A model generated the notes under the pieces. That model did no database searches, was not told the origin of the DNA, and was given only the letters and a program-made list of their open reading frames with translations. From the IMG/VR virus record IMGVR_UViG_2571042445_000002: a stretch of 64,000 bases of DNA; one strand, given 5' to 3'. The position numbers and the translations under genes are program-made. Source of the stretch: a virus (Duplodnaviria > Heunggongvirae > Uroviricota > Caudoviricetes). Positions 3,291-33,866 of the stretch are shown piece after piece (within the stretch, counting starts at the first letter, position 1; each line of letters opens with the position of its first letter).

Positions 3291-3308
3291 AAAACAAAAG
3301 ACCACTGG

Positions 3309-3324
3309 AAATCACAAACTGAAC
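3309..3324 (+). promoter_or_regulatory. candidate late-promoter element (AAATCACAAACTGAAC)
   Basis: one of four copies of a conserved 16-bp motif, 45 bp upstream of the tail-fibre operon start. Confidence 0.4.
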
Positions 3325-3368
3325 ATACTGCCCTTCGATTTATTGCTTGTTAAAGGGGCTATGTTCGT

Positions 3369-3815
3369 ATGGCTGAAACTTTAAAATCCCAAAGCGATTC
3401 AAGTATTTACAAGGCGCAACTCCTTTCTTACTACTACTCTCGCCGTGCAGAGTCTGCAATCGGCAGGGGTGAGCGTTTTGTTATGACAAAGGCTTATTGG
3501 TGCAAGTCCGATCTTGTGACGGTAAATAGTGCTGGTGGCTGGACTATTTCTGATATTCCGCTCGACTTCAAGTTAAGTGATGCACAGCATTTTGCTGAAT
3601 CCAATCTCATTCTTTCCAGCCTCGATGGTGTCATTACGATTAATGCCGCTTTTCCACAAGAAACGATGCCGGACGATACACCTTACGATTTCAATACGCT
3701 GGTTCTCGTAGATGCAGAGGATCAGGCTTTTGGGGTTGTTTGTACTCAACAGGACACCTTATTCAAAGGTAAGCGATACAGCTTGCTCATGACCATTGAA
3801 CAGGTCGAGGGATAA
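3369..3815 (+). CDS. tail-fibre operon protein (position equivalent to P1 R)
   Basis: 148 aa, immediately upstream of tail fibre gene. Confidence 0.3.
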   Translation: MAETLKSQSDSSIYKAQLLSYYYSRRAESAIGRGERFVMTKAYWCKSDLVTVNSAGGWTISDIPLDFKLSDAQHFAESNLILSSLDGVITINAAFPQETMPDDTPYDFNTLVLVDAEDQAFGVVCTQQDTLFKGKRYSLLMTIEQVEG

Positions 3816-3817
3816 TT

Positions 3818-6800
3818 ATGTGCGCAGATAAAGTAAAGAATATTGTCACCTTATCTTCGGACATTTCCGCTCCACTAATTGCAGACATGCAATACTTTGA
3901 GCTGTATAGCACCGAAGCTCTAAACAGGAAGATGAAAAATATCGTTCTGCCCGGAGTGTACTGTGGGTTTGAACCGGTGCCAGGGGATGGTCTGTTTGTG
4001 CGTATTACATCCGAGAAAACAGAGGGAAGAGGGGCGGCTTCAATTGACGTGGGTAAATGTCAGATATCCGTGCAGCAAGTCAGTGATGTTCTTGTTCCTG
4101 TAGAAGCTGGTGTAACGACAATCATCGTTCTTGAAGCTAATTACGAACATGGAGTGAAAACCAGCCAGGTAGATAGCTCATCGGATATTAGCGCAGCGAG
4201 AATTATTGCTCTCGTTGATGAGGAAATAGCATCTAACCAGATTGAGCTATGCCGCGTGATCGTGCCTGACAATGCTCAAGCCGTTACCGCAGATATGATT
4301 AGCACTGAATATCGTGCTAATCGTGCTGTTGGTGTTGAGTTTTCCAGTGCTTTGGATAGTGACGAAGAATATAAAGCCGCAACACCTCTTGCTATCAGCA
4401 CGTTAAACAAACTAAAAGCTCCGGTTGATAGCCCGGAGTTTATTGGTATACCTAAATCTCCAACTCCGGAACAAGGTACAAACAGTACACAAATCGCAAA
4501 CACTGCCTTTGTTCAGGCCGCAATAACCGCCCTTATTGATGGTTCTCCTTCGGCGTTGGATACGCTGAAAAAAATTGCAGATGCAATTAACAATGATCCT
4601 CAGTTTAGCCAGACGATTAATGCTGCTTTAGCTCTTAAAGCACCGTTATTAAGCCCGGCATTTACAGGGGTGCCAACAGCGCCTACAGCGTCACAAGGTA
4701 CGAACAACACTCAGATTGCAACAACCGCTTATGTTCGTGCCGCTATTTCTGCATTGGTCGGCTCATCACCAGAAGCTCTTGATACTCTTAATGAGCTTGC
4801 TGCGGCGCTGGGCAATGACCCGAACTTTGCGGCTACAATGACAAATGCCCTGGCAGGTAAGCAGCCTCTCGACGCAACCTTAACCGCGCTCGCTGACCTG
4901 GCGACGGGGGCAAATAAATTACCGTACTTTACCGGAACAGACACTGTAGCCCAGACTGATTTAACGTCAGTCGGTCGCGATATTCTTGCTAAAACAAGCA
5001 CACTGGCTGTTATCCAATACCTTGGTTTAAGAGAACTCGGAACCAGCGGAGAAAAGCTCCCCCTGTTGAGCACAGCTAATACCTGGAGTGCACGCCAGAC
5101 TTTCAGCGCGGGGATCACTGGTACGCTGACCGGGAACGCCGATACTGCGACGAAATTAAAAACAGCCAGAAAGATTAACGGTGTGGCATTTGATGGGTCG
5201 GCAGATATTACTCTGACCCCTGAAGATCTTGGCTTAACGGATATTGCTTCTCAAGCTGGTAACGCAGTTCAGCGTTCTGGCGACACAATGGGGGGGCAGC
5301 TAAAAATTGGCACAATAAATGCCCTTCGAATATTTAACCAGGACTTTGGCCTTATCTTCAGGAGATCCGAGGAATATCTTCATCTTATCCCGACAAATGA
5401 AGGGGAGGGTGAAAATGGTGACATCGGGCCATTAAGACCATTTTCTATAAACTTAAGAACTGGGTTGGTGTCCATCGGTAACGGCGTAAAAGTTGGCGGT
5501 GGTATTACTGGTAATTTGACGGGAAACGCAGATACTGCCACAAAGCTCAAGATAGCTCGAACGATCGGCGGAGTGTCATTTGATGGCAGCGCCAATATCG
5601 ACCTGCCTGGCGTGAATAAAACAGGTAATCAGAGCACTACCGGCAATGCTGCAACCGCAACGAAACTTCAGACGGCACGCACAATCGGCGGAGTGTCATT
5701 TGATGGCAGCGCCAATATCGACCTGCCTGGCGTGAATAAAACAGGTAATCAGAGCACTACCGGCAATGCTGCAACCGCAACGAAACTTCAGACGGCACGC
5801 ACAATCGGCGGAGTGTCATTTGATGGCAGCGCCAATATCGACCTGCCTGGCGTGAATAAAACGGGTAATCAGAGCACTACCGGCAATGCTGCAACCGCAA
5901 CGAAACTTCAGACGGCAAGAACAATCGGCGGGGTGGCATTTGATGGCACTGCCAATATCAACCTGCCGGGTGTGAACATTGCTGGTAACCAGAACACAAC
6001 AGGTAATGCTGCAACCGCTACAAAACTGCAAACAGCCCGCACAATCAACGGTGTTAAGTTTGATGGTTCTGCGAACATTTCGATACCAACAATTACGTCC
6101 AGAGGGCGTGTTACTGCGCTCACCAGTACAACGCAAGGTGCTACTACTGGATTGCAGATGTATGAGGCGTACAACAACGGCTATCCTTCTGCTTACGGGA
6201 ATGTGCTTCATCTTAAGGGCGCAACTGCCGCTGGTGAAGGCGAGTTGTTCATAGGTTGGAGCGGCACAAGTGGTGCTCATGCGCCTGTACATGTACGTTC
6301 GCGACGAGATACTGATACAGCCAGTTGGTCTGAGTGGGCGCAGGTCTACACATCGAAGGATTCCATCCCTGGTGTAAATACAACAGGCAACCAGAACACA
6401 ACCGGAAACGCGGCGTCTGCAACGAAATTACAAACGGCAAGAACTATTGGTGGTGTTTCATTTAATGGCACCGCAAACATCGACCTGCCGGGCGTGAATA
6501 AAACAGGTAATCAGAGCACTACCGGCAATGCTGCAACTGCAACGAAACTACAAACAGCGCGCACAATAGGCGGGGTTTCGTTTGATGGTACAGCAAACAT
6601 CAATCTTCCGGGCGTTAATATTGCCGGAAATCAAAATACAAGTGGTAATGCAGCTACAGCGACAAAGTTAAAAACTGCCAGAAAAATAAGTGGAGTGGCT
6701 TTTGATGGTTCTGCAGACATCACATTAACGGCAAGTCATGTTGGTGCGTTACCAACAACAGGTGGTACTGTTACCGGTGAAATTATATCCAGCAGCCAAA

Positions 6801-7327
6801 ATGCTATACGCCTAACTTATAATAATAACTATGGATTCCTAATAACTAATACTGGATATAGTTTCCAGATATCAACCACTGGGCAAAATGTTAATGGTGA
6901 TGTCGTTTACACTCCATTAAAGATAGATGGCGGTGATGGTCGCGTAGAATTAGGACGTGCTGATGGTCATGTAAGGGTTATGGGGAATTTATCTGCCGCT
7001 GGTCAGATTACCCCTGGTAACTATAGTAATTTCAACACGAAATATCAGGCTAAAAACACAGCATATGCCAACATTCATGGATGGCATAAGGATACATCAA
7101 CTAAGGTGATGATGCAGTGGGGGTTTATAACAAATTTAACTCCAGGAAGCGTGGTTAAATTTCCGACTACTTTTCCTGAGGCGTGTGCGGTAGTTGTGAT
7201 TTCGCCTCACAGCGGGAATGCTGTCAATTCAATTCTTTATACATACAACCACTCAGTCACTGGTTTTACAGTGAAAAGTAGCTCCACTGATAAAATATAT
7301 GCACAGTATGTTGCTTATGGTTATTAA
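3818..7327 (+). CDS. tail fibre protein with internal 40-aa shaft repeats
   Basis: 1169 aa; about 8 copies of the unit TGNQSTTGNAATATKLQTARTIGGVSFDGSANIDLPGVNK; followed directly by a Tfa gene. Confidence 0.8.
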   Translation: MCADKVKNIVTLSSDISAPLIADMQYFELYSTEALNRKMKNIVLPGVYCGFEPVPGDGLFVRITSEKTEGRGAASIDVGKCQISVQQVSDVLVPVEAGVTTIIVLEANYEHGVKTSQVDSSSDISAARIIALVDEEIASNQIELCRVIVPDNAQAVTADMISTEYRANRAVGVEFSSALDSDEEYKAATPLAISTLNKLKAPVDSPEFIGIPKSPTPEQGTNSTQIANTAFVQAAITALIDGSPSALDTLKKIADAINNDPQFSQTINAALALKAPLLSPAFTGVPTAPTASQGTNNTQIATTAYVRAAISALVGSSPEALDTLNELAAALGNDPNFAATMTNALAGKQPLDATLTALADLATGANKLPYFTGTDTVAQTDLTSVGRDILAKTSTLAVIQYLGLRELGTSGEKLPLLSTANTWSARQTFSAGITGTLTGNADTATKLKTARKINGVAFDGSADITLTPEDLGLTDIASQAGNAVQRSGDTMGGQLKIGTINALRIFNQDFGLIFRRSEEYLHLIPTNEGEGENGDIGPLRPFSINLRTGLVSIGNGVKVGGGITGNLTGNADTATKLKIARTIGGVSFDGSANIDLPGVNKTGNQSTTGNAATATKLQTARTIGGVSFDGSANIDLPGVNKTGNQSTTGNAATATKLQTARTIGGVSFDGSANIDLPGVNKTGNQSTTGNAATATKLQTARTIGGVAFDGTANINLPGVNIAGNQNTTGNAATATKLQTARTINGVKFDGSANISIPTITSRGRVTALTSTTQGATTGLQMYEAYNNGYPSAYGNVLHLKGATAAGEGELFIGWSGTSGAHAPVHVRSRRDTDTASWSEWAQVYTSKDSIPGVNTTGNQNTTGNAASATKLQTARTIGGVSFNGTANIDLPGVNKTGNQSTTGNAATATKLQTARTIGGVSFDGTANINLPGVNIAGNQNTSGNAATATKLKTARKISGVAFDGSADITLTASHVGALPTTGGTVTGEIISSSQNAIRLTYNNNYGFLITNTGYSFQISTTGQNVNGDVVYTPLKIDGGDGRVELGRADGHVRVMGNLSAAGQITPGNYSNFNTKYQAKNTAYANIHGWHKDTSTKVMMQWGFITNLTPGSVVKFPTTFPEACAVVVISPHSGNAVNSILYTYNHSVTGFTVKSSSTDKIYAQYVAYGY
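5564..5923 (+). repeat. three near-identical tandem 120-bp repeats inside the tail fibre gene
   Basis: period exactly 120 bp (5564, 5684, 5804); more diverged copies continue to about 6720. Confidence 0.9.
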
Positions 7328-7358: not shown

Positions 7359-7781
7359 ATGGCAAAGTATTACAGCAAAGAGACTGGTGGTTTCTACGAC
7401 GACAGACTAAAAGAAGATTACGATAAAAACGGTTCATGGCCGTCCGATACTGTACATATACCTGATGACTTATATGATGAATTGTTATCAGGGTATGGCA
7501 ATGGGAAAATAATAATTGCAAATGGCGATGGTTATCCAATGTTATCTGACCCACAACCTATGAGCTTAGAGGATAGAGTCAGCATTGCTGAAAACACCAA
7601 AAGTAGTCTTATGAATGATGTGAGCATAAAAATATCAACGCTTCAGGATGCTGTTGATATGGATATTGCCACTGATGAGGAAATAGAAATGTTGACAAAG
7701 TTAAAGAGGTATAGAGTTCTTCTTAATAGAGTTGACACTTCTGTTGATGCAGATATCTCATGGCCTGAGATGCCTGTATAA
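7359..7781 (+). CDS. tfa: tail fibre assembly protein (Tfa / P1 U family)
   Basis: 140 aa; C-terminal RYRVLLNRVDTSVDADISWPEMP is the hallmark Tfa motif. Confidence 0.85.
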   Translation: MAKYYSKETGGFYDDRLKEDYDKNGSWPSDTVHIPDDLYDELLSGYGNGKIIIANGDGYPMLSDPQPMSLEDRVSIAENTKSSLMNDVSIKISTLQDAVDMDIATDEEIEMLTKLKRYRVLLNRVDTSVDADISWPEMPV

Positions 7782-8188
7782 ACAATCATAACAATCCAAT
7801 CAGCACTGCTTTTTTGATATTTCAAGCCCTCTTTTGTTGAGGGCTTTATTAGTGAGTGCTTTTGTGACCTTTTTTAGTAATACAATCCTTTGGTACAAAA
7901 AAGCCGCCGTCCAGTCAATGACGGCGGGCAAAATGAACACTCAGTTAGTGGTATCTGAGAGGGGGGCATTATATTCACTGAATGACGCTTGTGAAGACTC
8001 ACATGTCATCATTTTGTCCTCAAGAATCAGCTCACATCTTGCGCATTCAAGCGTATTTCTCTTTAAAGCCGTGTTTGGACCATTTTGTTGATACGCGAAT
8101 TTGGCATCCTCCACGCTCTGAGTGACGAGGTTTACGGACCACCGGGCCATCATATGCATCCATTTTGTGTGAATGGCATTTAGTCGGG

Positions 8189-14168: not shown

Positions 14169-14347
14169 AAGTTTCCTTATGCAATTTATCCATCATGGGC
14201 GATAAGAATAGTAACACAAAAGATATAAAACACAACAAAAATGTTTATAAACATAACTTCCTTGTTTGGTGGTTGCGTTTTTGGAAAAGCATTTCCGCAT
14301 ATGGAAAAACATCAGCATATGGTGAAAACAACGAAAAATTACTGATG

Positions 14348-31336: not shown

Positions 31337-32515
31337 ATTTTAAGGTAAGGGAAAGCTCCGGCACCGTGCAAATACATGCCCGGCAGGTTTAGTGCGTAAA
31401 GTGGTTTCAGCGAGAGCATTTTACGGAGTAAACGACAGTGACTTGAGCCACGGAAGGTCTTTTTATGGTGTTCATTGATGATGATCTGGCAGTGAGTATG
31501 TTAAGTGGGCCAGGCTGCATCGGGTCATCATCAGTGCACATCCTCAACGTTAAGGAGGCGCAGAGTTGGGTTTTCCTCTTATTTTGCTGACTCTGAGTCT
31601 CCTTAACGTTGCGGTAATGCACCTATGCGGATGTGGCCTTGCATTGTGTCTTGAAAGAATGGGGTAAGGCCGGGGATATCCTCAGGGGGAGGCACCCCCG
31701 CTGCAACGAACAGCCACAGACGGCAGTCGAGTGATGGAAACGTGCAAAGACTTTAAACCTCGTTACGGCTGGCGTGGCAAACGCGACAACCGAGACAGAG
31801 CGGTGACGGGCGGAGAGAGAGCCGCTTCAAGATAAAAGCCGACTATGGATTCCTTTCTGCGGGCCTTTGAAAGTGAATCTTGCTCAGGCAGTCGGCTTTT
31901 ATGTTGATACGTAGCGATAACCGCGACAGGCGCGGCGGTAAGTATGGCGGGGTTATTCCTTCCCCGTTGAGGACACCGAGTTGCCAGGTTGACCATACGC
32001 CTAAGTGGCAATACCGCGAGTGGGATATTTGCCCACCTTCGGGTGGGTGTTTTTTCAGTGTTTTCGTCATGGTTAGCGACTTTGCGGCGGTTTAGAACCC
32101 GACCATTAAAGTAAATGCAAACGATGATCTGATGATGGTAGCGGCCTAAGAAGCCTGACGCCACGGGGTATGAGTCGTCCCCCGTCAAAAAATCGACCGC
32201 AGAGTGTCCCCGTCTGTGTATTAGGGAACGGGGAGGCATAACAGGCAAGGGCGCTGGTGTGATTAACCAGATGAATGAGAAGGGTCAGGTCTTTCTGGTC
32301 AGCGCCCTTACCTGTTACGTCCCTCCCGCGTAACAGCCATTGGTTAATGGCTTTCTGGGATAATGTCTTGTAACGGGTATATCCCGTCATGCTGAAGGCG
32401 CTAATCACGCTGGAAGCCAGGGTTATGCATCCCCTGTTACCGAATTGCAGCCAGGGCGCGGTGCGCCGAAAAGCATACGGAGGTGGAAGCCCTCGCCGGA
32501 GACGTACCCGGCAAG

Positions 32516-32857: not shown

Positions 32858-32944
32858 GGAGAGTAGGGAGCATGGTGCTCAAGCGGTCTTGAAAACCGTC
32901 CCATTGCGCAAGCGATGATGGTTCGATTCCATTACTCTCCGCCA
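32858..32944 (+). tRNA. tRNA-Ser-like (anticodon TGA), long variable arm, atypical D-arm
   Basis: acceptor ggagagt/actctcc, anticodon loop CTTGAAA, long variable arm, T-loop TTCGATT, CCA encoded. Confidence 0.5.
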
Positions 32945-33200
32945 GCGCAACGTTAAGAGTATTTGGCTAATTAAGCGAATGCCGGAAGCAGAACCGGATC
33001 ACCAAATGCTCTTACCATTGCGGTGAATGCGGCTAAGCGCACGCGGAACAGTTAAAACAGTAAAGGTGGTCTTTTTACTGGCGTAACGAGAATCCATAAG
33101 TGATCCGGCGTTAATTGTTAACTGGTTAACGTCACCGGGAGGCACCCGGCACCGCAACCTAACAGCAATGGCGTTTTGTCTTAAAAGGTGGCTGCAAGTG

Positions 33201-33329
33201 ATGGATTTTTGGGCGTTTGCCGATAAAAACCCGGAGTGGACATTATTGTTTCTGCTGGTGGTTGCATACGGGGTAGAGCAAGCGGCAAAAGCCTTACGCG
33301 GTTCTGGCAAAAAGCGTAAGCGTAATTAA
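33201..33329 (+). CDS. small membrane peptide (42 aa)
   Basis: ATG ORF MDFWAFADKNPEWTLLFLLVVAYGVEQAAKALRGSGKKRKRN, one TM helix plus basic tail; below the ORF-track size cutoff. Confidence 0.25.
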   Translation: MDFWAFADKNPEWTLLFLLVVAYGVEQAAKALRGSGKKRKRN

Positions 33330-33338
33330 CAGTAATCT

Positions 33339-33414
33339 GGCCCTTTAGCTCAGTGGTTAGAGCGGGCGACTCATAATCGCACGGTCACCGGTTCAAGTCC
33401 GGTAGGGGCCACCA
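33339..33414 (+). tRNA. tRNA-Ile2 (anticodon CAT, lysidine type)
   Basis: 76 nt, nearly identical over D-arm and anticodon arm to E. coli tRNA-Ile2 as I recall it; CCA encoded. Confidence 0.8.
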
Positions 33415-33866
33415 CATTTGGTTGTAACACGGCGTATGGCACATGCGTCGTTAGCGGTCTGGTGTAGCTGTTAGGTACCTTTTACTAACACTGCATGGGC
33501 ACACCAGGTAGCCGGAATGTGCAAGCCCCGTTCATAGCGTCGGACTGCGGATTCACCATCCTGGCGATTCGGTGTGACAGCCGGAAGAGCACGGCGTACA
33601 ACAGGAAAAGGCGTTTAATTAGCGTGAGCGCCGTTTCCGTTGTGGTAATTGCGGCTATGCGCTCGTGACGAAGCCATTTTCATTCACTACGTTCTGATAA
33701 GTGTCGTCGCCGGGCGTGGCTAACCTGGCAGGTGGAGGCACCACCGCCACAACTCCTTTCAATTCATCATATAGCCGCTCAGGCTGTAACCCTTAATTAA
33801 TACGAAGTTACGACGTCACTACCGGTTCAGCCGGGGGATAGTCGCGCGTGTAAAAAAGGAGACGTT

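Follow-up and report, generated by a model that had tools for sequence, protein, structure and literature searches.

Phages P1 and D6 carry a tail-fibre gene, S, that follows a unit-insert-unit plan (U1-[93/94]-U1) with a single 40-residue unit at each position, together with the Sv'/U' gene set, the cixL site and the invertase gene cin. Natural P1-like E. coli plasmids in which cin has been lost or truncated and the C-segment modified, with a presumed loss of switching, were reported by Venturini et al. (2019, PMC6906374), who do not describe repeat arrays. Short trimeric fibre modules are known from T4, where the alpha-beta fibrous repeats of gp34 and gp12 recur in several fibre proteins (PMC5537660), and a segment of the phage L protein Dec, unfolded in monomers, forms an intertwined beta-structured spike upon trimerisation (PMC11398494). 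In the literature collection searched, nothing was found on repeat number versus fibre length in phages. In the trimeric adenovirus fibre shaft, length has been measured to follow the number of in-frame repeats of about 15 residues. That shaft shares neither homology nor fold with the fibre considered here and serves as an analogy only, for a length effect that we infer.

The DNA analysed here, hereafter the window, is a stretch of 64,000 nucleotides from a Caudoviricetes virus record (IMGVR_UViG_2571042445_000002). It contains what appears to be a fibre gene of the P1/D6 type, in which arrays of five and three units, plus an extra insert of 90 residues, are found where P1 and D6 have one unit per position. 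We consider it fairly probable (about 0.78) that this fibre is modular, with units and inserts on a string from which whole units are gained or lost by in-register recombination, and that the associated switch is frozen.

The fibre gene and the remains of its invertible segment

The open reading frame at 3818–7327 (+ strand, 1169 aa) is, by homology and synteny, the tail-fibre gene of a P1/D6-like E. coli phage-plasmid, as the original prediction of a fibre gene had it. Megablast aligned it to the S genes of P1, P7, D6 and RCS47, with 82% identity to P1 S over gene nucleotides 655–1367 and 77% to D6 S over nucleotides 100–2470, so that homology in the constant N-terminal part starts at nucleotide 100 for D6 and at 655 for P1. 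The protein is identical to WP_228339674.1 (exact match in a public protein collection), and PHROG tail-fibre families match the reading frame with E = 0. Directly 5' lies a 148-aa homologue of P1 gene R (3369–3815, +; WP_021551831.1), which agrees in position and size with P1 R and D6 orf36 and is kept in all relatives. Directly 3', in the position of P1 U, a 140-aa tail-fibre assembly chaperone is encoded (7359–7781, +; PF02413 Caudo_TAP, E 1.8e-34). Open reading frames and Pfam matches, compared with annotated P1 and D6, gave a P1-type order, 16-R-S-U...lydA-lydB-darA, in which baseplate genes are followed by R, S and U and then by the lysis genes lydA/lydB and by darA.

A candidate late-promoter motif, GAAATCACAAACTGAACA, was located upstream of the R-S-U operon (3308–3325, +). 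The pattern GAAAT-ACAAACTG-A-A occurs six times on the + strand against 0.12 occurrences expected, and one copy stands at 8188, before lydA. Neither of the P1 late promoters, LPs and LPdar, was present before R or lydA when up to 4 mismatches were allowed, and both were rejected as promoters here; the GAAAT-type motif is common to both places instead.

At the junction between the constant and variable parts of the fibre gene, as in P1 and D6, there is a cixR site (5013–5032, +) identical in 20 of 20 positions to the annotated cixR of both phages. It is an orphan: with up to 4 mismatches allowed, the window gave no second cix-like site (cixL), and the one further match had 5. Tblastn and blastn revealed a remnant of cin on the minus strand (8014–8100) that spans approximately codons 7–34 and has a degenerate catalytic region. 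With P1 Cin as the query, tblastn aligned residues 11–34 at 71% identity (E 7.7e-6, minus strand 8084–8013), and by blastn the remnant is 82% identical to the 5' end of P1 cin and 80% to that of D6. The window thus holds neither a functional cin nor cixL/Sv'/U', and the annotation of the closest complete plasmid lists no serine recombinase at all. The gap from U to lydA is only 460 bp, with no alternative Sv'/U' genes, and a relative with the full invertible segment, L007, in which cixL and Sv'/U' features are present and the recombinase gene sequence is covered in part only, loses colinearity with the window beyond 8015. The remnant marks a deletion scar at which U', Sv' and cixL have been lost along with most of cin; this particular scar, joining the end of the U spacer to about codon 34 of cin, is specific to this D6-like lineage. 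Hence it was rightly noted beforehand that, unlike in P1, no invertase gene or invertible segment follows the fibre genes, what is left of cin amounting to some 28 codons. Similar recombinase remnants were also seen in P1-lineage plasmids.

As cixR is intact and a cin remnant lies downstream, the element descends from one that had an invertase. Under the preferred reading, the locus would once have been part of the Cin-invertible C-segment, and a deletion would have taken the alternative fibre end together with the invertase. Only one fibre type would then be made, since both have been deleted, and this lineage would have frozen its host-range switch through the deletion of cin.

Anatomy and spread of the 40-residue unit

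Tandem Repeats Finder detected an array at 5564–6046 (period 120, 4.0 copies, 92% matches, score 784) and a second at 6377–6620 (period 120, 2.0 copies, 78% matches). The copies of the first array start at 5564, 5684, 5804 and 5924; the first two are 100% identical, the third is 97.5% identical to them and the fourth 80.8%. An exact match of 179 nt at offset 120 starts at 5564, giving 299 bp with exact 120-bp periodicity, and a repeat-family search returned one family of six 300-nt copies with spacings of 120/120/120/522/120. This periodicity is far beyond chance. The period is three times 40, and both arrays are in frame within the fibre gene. No DNA-level repeats were found in the N-terminal half of the gene; at the protein level, a duplication of 74 aa is visible in the constant part (aa 202–348).

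In all, nine units were delimited, starting at aa 435, 565, 605, 645, 685, 725, 859, 899 and 939 and arranged as 1 + 5 + 3, with inserts of 90 and 94 aa between the groups. Their DNA identity ranges from 51 to 99%, the units at aa 605 and 645 being 99.2% identical, and their consensus is QxTTGNAATATKLQTARTIGGVSFDGSANIxLPGVNxxGN, which includes the core motif GNA-TA-KL-TAR-I...FDGS-NI; twelve columns of the unit alignment are invariant. Both the near-identity of three consecutive 120-bp copies and the divergence of further 40-aa units, as originally described, are therefore confirmed. The array had been placed at 5564–6720, which stops just short of the end of the last unit at 6751.

The lone unit (aa 435–474; 5120–5239, +) is, as in P1 and D6, the first after cixR, and its counterpart in P1 S and in D6 S is likewise their first unit. 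Insert A follows (aa 475–564, 90 aa; 5240–5509, +), with PHROG tail-fibre matches and a Gp34_trimer match that is sub-threshold only (E 0.09); the architecture [434]-U1-[90]-... is common to most homologues. The five tandem units of array 1 (aa 565–764; 5510–6109, +) comprise the near-identical copies at 5564–5923 in the register of Tandem Repeats Finder. Insert B (aa 765–858, 94 aa; 6110–6391, +), which has PHROG tail-fibre matches with E 2e-58, is the same kind of module as the insert of P1 and D6, and it leads to the three tandem units of array 2 (aa 859–978; 6392–6751, +), supported by Tandem Repeats Finder and by the unit alignment. The C-terminal tip (aa 979–1169; 6752–7327, +), the presumed receptor-binding end, carries PF21882 Gp53-like_C over its cut-off (E 4.9e-10), begins with a Gp34_trimer-like stretch that is under the cut-off (23.3 bits), and resembles the structure of Mu fibre protein S (5yvq, E 2.8e-7). 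It is thus gp53-like, whereas the tip of P1 S is of the P1/Mu type. The idea of a fibre holds, but calling the region a shaft is a simplification, as the units alternate with inserted modules and do not make one uniform rod.

The unit had no match in Pfam-A and no family in NCBIfam. PF03406, the T4 gp34/gp12-type repeat, was rejected as its identity, since it had no match within aa 435–978; the sole match, at aa 174–198 in the N-terminal constant part, scored 20.1 bits, below the cut-off of 22. A motif of this T4 type, different from that of the units, is present there and within the 74-aa duplication. A sequence search of the PDB with the whole protein returned nothing for the repeats, and a profile built from the units was needed to obtain matches, to phage L Dec at its C-terminal spike (6e3c, E 2e-6) and to the PhiM1 gp47 fibre (8vbx, E 2e-4). 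The Dec match covers residues 98–134 (NAETADKLSTARTI...SFDGSANVTI); Dec differs in having just one copy, into which 7 residues are inserted, and in being a capsid protein instead of a fibre, and its atomic structure is modelled, not solved. At E ≤ 0.001 the same profile matched 19,910 representative proteins, in which as many as 19 stretches were matched per protein. Fibres that contain the unit come from coliphages, cyanophages, Acinetobacter T4-like phages and Mu/P2-like phages. The 40-residue unit is therefore a widespread fibre building block, and a tandem array of it is nothing unusual in phage fibres, where it has good precedent, a case of a known kind. With some 20,000 representative proteins matched and no Pfam-A entry, the unit could be considered for a curated family.

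A single-sequence monomer model of aa 555–981 from AlphaFold2 was all-beta with four strands per unit; its confidence was low (mean pLDDT 47), and the periodic pattern was used as weak support only. Going by this model and the likeness to Dec, each unit is probably a short beta-structured element whose folding requires the trimer. Each added unit should then, as a trimeric element, lengthen the fibre by a fixed increment, and unit number would set fibre length.

Unit number among relatives and how it may change

Comparison with relatives shows that units have been gained and lost in register. The complete plasmids NZ_CP098883 and NZ_CP098907 share 99.9% identity across 9.7 kb and are exactly one unit of 120 bp apart; their fibre genes show 0 mismatches and a crossover window of 167 nt. 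Taking 882 bp out of the fibre gene of NZ_LR890273 gives, apart from 1 mismatch, that of NZ_CP069647, also a complete assembly; the crossover falls within 14 identical nt that one unit of array 1 shares with one of array 2, so that this in-register deletion joined the two arrays and insert B was lost. Moreover, complete P1-lineage plasmids carry U2, U3 or U4 before the same [94]-U2-[237]-U3. The repeat number is thus not invariant across relatives. The original prediction that expansion or contraction would change fibre length is upheld for the gain and loss of units in complete assemblies, from which the change in length would follow. According to the explanation we favour, the region makes up the distal half of the S homologue, its variable part, and unequal homologous recombination or replication slippage between units would add or remove whole units or unit-insert blocks. 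The reading frame would be kept, because each unit spans 120 bp in frame and some of the units have identical DNA stretches. Recombination between units would also homogenise their sequences, and exchange within the array is seen in relatives: in the window the units at aa 605 and 645 are the near-identical pair, but in NZ_JBYRJZ010000003 and NZ_CP114225 those at aa 605 and 685 are 100% identical, with the total still five.

Nevertheless, all 12 of the closest complete relatives with the same flanks have a gene of 3510 bp with 5 + 3 units, at 96–98.4% gene identity and despite 2–4% nucleotide divergence, and two sub-lineages with the internal unit orders a-b-b-c-d and a-c-b-c-d share the same count. 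Such constancy would suit a fixed-length element, in which 5 + 3 units are under selection and the polymorphism consists mainly of assembly artefact plus rare accidents, with no length-varying device, a reading that we regard as unlikely. The best 120 database homologues form a length ladder in 40-aa steps, largely from draft assemblies, and their 3-, 4-, 5- and 6-unit forms differ at 0 of 809 non-repeat residues; yet, among 5426 complete E. coli genomes, none had 2, 3 or 4 units with these flanks, forms that dominate the draft homologues. Many partial fibre proteins of 400–632 aa in the same collection lie at the ends of contigs of about 90 kb, so assemblies break in the fibre gene, and collapse of the array is to be expected as it holds repeated k-mers up to k = 151. 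The draft ladder is thereby confounded and was downgraded as proof of rapid variation, and much of the apparent variation in drafts may be assembly artefact. This does not extend to the single-unit, 882-bp and U2/U3/U4 differences between complete sequences, nor can the collapse of five units give forms with six.

The zero-difference alleles, the loss of cin and the 299-bp perfectly periodic stretch could also be taken as signs of a programmed contingency locus, changing at high frequency, that stands in for the lost Cin switch and yields mixed fibre lengths in each lysate. We consider this very improbable, as the alleles come from collapse-prone draft assemblies and the count is constant in the 12 complete relatives. 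Classical contingency loci, moreover, are tracts of 1–9 bp, unlike units of 120 bp. Arrays do not correlate with cin loss either, because L007 has 4 + 3 arrays and an intact invertible segment, and an origin of the arrays through cin loss was accordingly rejected. Possible, though doubtful, is that the unit acts as an in-frame recombination adaptor for swapping inserts and tips, with tandem copies as by-products and not as length tuning. Whichever kind of module comes next, a conserved core of 26 aa stands before it, whereas the last 10–14 residues of the unit vary with what follows (another unit, the 94-aa insert, a 214/237-aa insert or the C-terminal tip); homologues with identical ends carry 94-, 216- and 237-aa inserts in differing order and number; and the fusion of array 1 to array 2 in NZ_CP069647 removed insert B. 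Such a role leaves uninterrupted runs of five or six units unexplained; it is compatible with the main explanation and not exclusive of it.

A bolder proposal, which we think improbable, is that fibre length is held by stabilising selection while the array itself turns over, the two sub-lineages having arrived at or retained exactly five units with different internal orders. The unit would then be a universal in-frame recombination adaptor, through which phage-plasmids devoid of the Cin switch could still re-tune their reach and swap fibre modules, and one uncurated 40-aa motif would be a general length-and-module currency of fibres across very distant phages.

The scientific gain from the locus is a modest one, namely breakpoints that document a P1-family fibre gene growing and shrinking in whole 40-aa steps. 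In practice, when a common group of E. coli phage-plasmids is assembled from short reads, the assemblies break or collapse at the array, and draft fibre-length alleles are for this reason not trustworthy without long reads. Anyone engineering P1-type transducing particles might alter fibre length or tips at the natural in-frame junctions that the units provide.

Two repeat arrays in an S-type fibre gene

Tandem Repeats Finder detected an array at 5564-6046 with a period of 120 bp (4.0 copies, 92% matches, score 784) and a second array of the same period at 6377-6620 (2.0 copies, 78% matches), and a repeat search assigned both to a single repeat family with spacings of 120/120/120/522/120. In the register of the original prediction, copies 1 and 2 are 100% identical, copy 3 is 97.5% identical to both and copy 4 is 80.8% identical, and the stretch 5564-5862 is perfectly periodic, with an exact 179-nt match at offset 120 starting at 5564. 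The 120-bp periodicity is far beyond chance. Both the near-identical consecutive copies that had been predicted and the further, diverged 40-aa units were thus recovered, the latter among the nine units present in protein register.

Both arrays lie in frame within a single ORF (3818-7327, + strand, 1169 aa) that matches the tail-fibre gene S of P1, P7, RCS47 and D6, with homology starting at nt 100 of the gene for D6 and at nt 655 for P1. The proposed tail-fibre identity was confirmed by this homology, by matches of the protein to PHROG tail-fibre families at E = 0 and by a gene order that is the one of P1/D6: genes for a gp6-like baseplate protein, a gene 16 homologue and an R homologue (3369-3815) precede the fibre gene, which is followed by a Caudo_TAP assembly protein gene (7359-7781, E 1.8e-34) and, beyond it, lydA, lydB, hdf and darA. 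Synteny, homology, a cixR site and the chaperone gene all identify the locus as a P1/D6-type S fibre. An identical protein is already public (WP_228339674.1, "beta strand repeat-containing protein").

The nine units share the consensus QxTTGNAATATKLQTARTIGGVSFDGSANIxLPGVNxxGN, of which twelve positions per unit are invariant in the unit alignment. Their order is one isolated unit starting at aa 435, then a 90-aa insert (aa 475-564), five tandem units (array 1, aa 565-764), a 94-aa insert (insert B, aa 765-858) and three tandem units (array 2, aa 859-978), and beyond the last unit lies a C-terminal region of 191 aa. This region contains a Gp53-like_C domain (E 4.9e-10), shows a sub-threshold Gp34_trimer-like match at its start and resembles the Mu fibre structure 5yvq. 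The S proteins of P1 and D6 have the same plan but with single units, U1-[93/94]-U1-[328] (insert lengths in aa), so the fibre of the window enlarges on the P1 plan. An older tandem duplication, of 74 aa, occurs in the constant N-terminal part (aa 202-274 and 276-348, window 4421-4861); its copies are about 50% identical as protein, and the DNA no longer reveals a repeat. The duplication contains the SP-F-G-P motif of T4 gp34-type repeats and is probably the counterpart of the P1 repeats annotated as b1/b2; a weak PF03406-type motif is found at aa 174-198.

Nature of the 40-aa unit

No model in Pfam-A or NCBIfam matched the units. Their assignment to PF03406, the T4 gp34-type repeat used as comparison system (PMC5537660), was rejected, as PF03406 gave no match to them. 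Among solved entries, the unit profile matched Dec, the decoration protein of phage L, in its C-terminal spike (6e3c, E 2e-6), and gp47, the tail fibre of PhiM1 (8vbx, E 2e-4). The Dec segment is unfolded in monomers and becomes in the trimer an intertwined beta-structured spike that holds the trimer together (PMC11398494). A single-sequence AlphaFold model, although poor (mean pLDDT 47), was periodic and all-beta, with four strands per unit. Because of this pattern and of the likeness to the Dec spike, we infer that each unit may be a small trimer-dependent beta element adding a fixed length to the fibre.

At E <= 0.001 the profile matched 19,910 representative proteins, in as many as 19 stretches of a single protein, including fibres of coliphages, Acinetobacter T4-like phages, cyanophages, and Mu- and P2-like phages; nine units per protein are therefore not exceptional. 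Distinct from the PF03406 or T4 gp34-type repeat, the unit is a widespread and uncurated 40-aa element related to the Dec spike, and a candidate for a curated repeat family.

Unit number among relatives

Complete assemblies provided the case for changes in unit number. Plasmids pCUVET19-1993.3 and pCUVET19-1396.3 (accessions NZ_CP098883 and NZ_CP098907) are 99.9% identical across 9.7 kb; array 1 of one is longer by exactly 120 bp, the gene shows no mismatch, and the crossover could lie anywhere within 167 nt. Compared with NZ_LR890273, the fibre gene of NZ_CP069647 lacks 882 bp, in register, and has 1 mismatch; insert B and five units were lost by a crossover where one unit of array 1 and one of array 2 are identical over 14 nt. 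Moreover, in three complete P1-lineage plasmids, runs of two, three or four units (U2, U3 or U4) precede the same [94]-U2-[237]-U3, and in other relatives modules of 214-406 aa are inserted between units. The predicted expansion and contraction of the repeats is thus seen among complete relatives, and the invariant repeat number named beforehand as the contrary outcome was not found, since complete assemblies differ in unit count. The array is real and its original reading essentially right. That fibre genes of the P1 family contain motifs which are repeated and rearranged has been known since the early 1990s, and Sandmeier reportedly described this in 1994; the multi-unit fibre is a kind of feature already known, to which this locus adds another example.

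The units are in frame and partly identical as DNA. Variants found in nature differ from one another by entire units or by blocks bounded by units, and their crossovers fall inside units. Such changes would arise when units recombine unequally through their homology or when replication slips from one to another; each unit would lengthen the trimeric fibre, and fibre length would in turn influence how far it reaches towards the receptor. The leading alternative holds that selection fixes the length in the lineage of the window, variation being rare. All 12 of the closest complete records (96-98.4% gene identity; human, dog, monkey, chicken, wild bird and wastewater sources) have a 3510-bp gene with 5 + 3 units in arrays 1 and 2. 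In two of these 12 the identical pair is units 605 and 685, whereas the window has its near-identical pair at 605 and 645, with the count unchanged; thus exchange occurs inside the array, yet unit number is stable in the closest lineage.

A second view, compatible with recombinational change of length, is that the units serve chiefly as adaptors for module exchange. The final 10-14 residues of a unit vary with what comes next: units ending in "...NIDLPGVNKTGN" are followed by another unit, "...ISIPTITSRGR" by the 94-aa insert and "...ITLTASHVGAL" by the tip. A programmed contingency locus is unlikely. The best 120 database homologues form a ladder in 40-aa steps (835, 875, 915, 995, 1009, 1049, 1089, 1129 and 1209 aa), and their 3-, 4-, 5- and 6-unit forms differ at 0 of 809 non-repeat residues. 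This looks like very rapid variation but was treated as confounded by assembly collapse, because the homologues come mostly from draft assemblies, 2-, 3- and 4-unit forms with the flanks of the window were absent from 5426 complete genomes, the protein's cluster contains many 400-632-aa partial fibre proteins on ~90-kb contigs, implying that assemblies break in the fibre gene, and the array has repeated k-mers up to k = 151. Short-read assemblies evidently break or collapse in the array, which makes repeat counts from draft genomes unreliable.

Relics of the invertible segment and neighbouring features

The expected lack of an invertase gene and invertible segment held: the gap between U and lydA is only 460 bp and contains a degenerate remnant of the cin 5' end (~28 codons, about 8014-8100, - strand, downstream of the fibre gene), with 71% protein identity to Cin aa 11-34 and 82% DNA identity to P1. 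The P1 counterpart of this stretch also carries the inversion enhancer. An orphan site identical at 20/20 positions to cixR of P1 and D6 persists inside the fibre gene (5013-5032, + strand), 30 codons upstream of the first unit, so all units fall within the part corresponding to the invertible Sv of P1. In NZ_CP159120 the invertible segment is intact: besides a homologous fibre with 4 + 3 units it has U', Sv', another cix site and the first part of a gene whose annotation reads "recombinase family protein". As this relative is colinear with the window up to 8015, the deletion scar was placed at about 8014/8015. The annotation of the closest complete plasmid lists no serine recombinase at any position. 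The lineage of the window has frozen a formerly invertible fibre segment, and the locus is a fixed derivative of the P1/D6 system, since invertible segment and functional cin were both missing.

The arrays were rejected as a consequence of cin loss, because NZ_CP159120 has both arrays and a recombinase gene. Its expressed (L007, 2675-5677, +) and silent (L007, 6937-9321, -) fibre ends both carry 40-aa units that form inverted DNA repeats, and homologous recombination between these could cause inversion without Cin or give chimeric fibres. P1-like plasmids in which cin is lost or truncated have already been reported (PMC6906374), and in nature such plasmids seem to have lost the Cin switch repeatedly. 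Three P1-lineage plasmids contain truncated "recombinase family protein" remnants (L017, 6884-7052; L018, 6665-6793; L019, 6728-6896), together with long multi-unit fibres of 1475-1566 aa and truncated assembly-protein genes.

A motif GAAAT-ACAAACTG-A-A occurs 6 times in the window against 0.12 expected. Copies lie upstream of the R-S-U (3308) and lydA (8188) operons and at 14347, 52422 and 62261, all on the + strand; the sixth falls within a repeat unit (6424) and is probably there by chance. As P1's own late-promoter sequence is absent, these copies may be late promoters of the D6-like lineage.

The nearest records are ~90-kb non-mobilizable E. coli plasmids (e.g. NZ_LR890273.1, 98.4%) whose annotation is that of a D6-like phage-plasmid, with portal, pacase, a tRNA cluster, phd/doc, ParM and RepB, and with a tyrosine recombinase where P1 has cre. 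In the closest complete relative (L015), which should be roughly colinear with the window at +1135, annotation alone places a five-tRNA cluster (Arg, Tyr, Thr, Ser, Ile) and a Thoeris anti-defence Tad2 family gene at 31380-32408 and 32861-33436, and shows a 6.8-kb SNF2-related gene where darB lies in P1.
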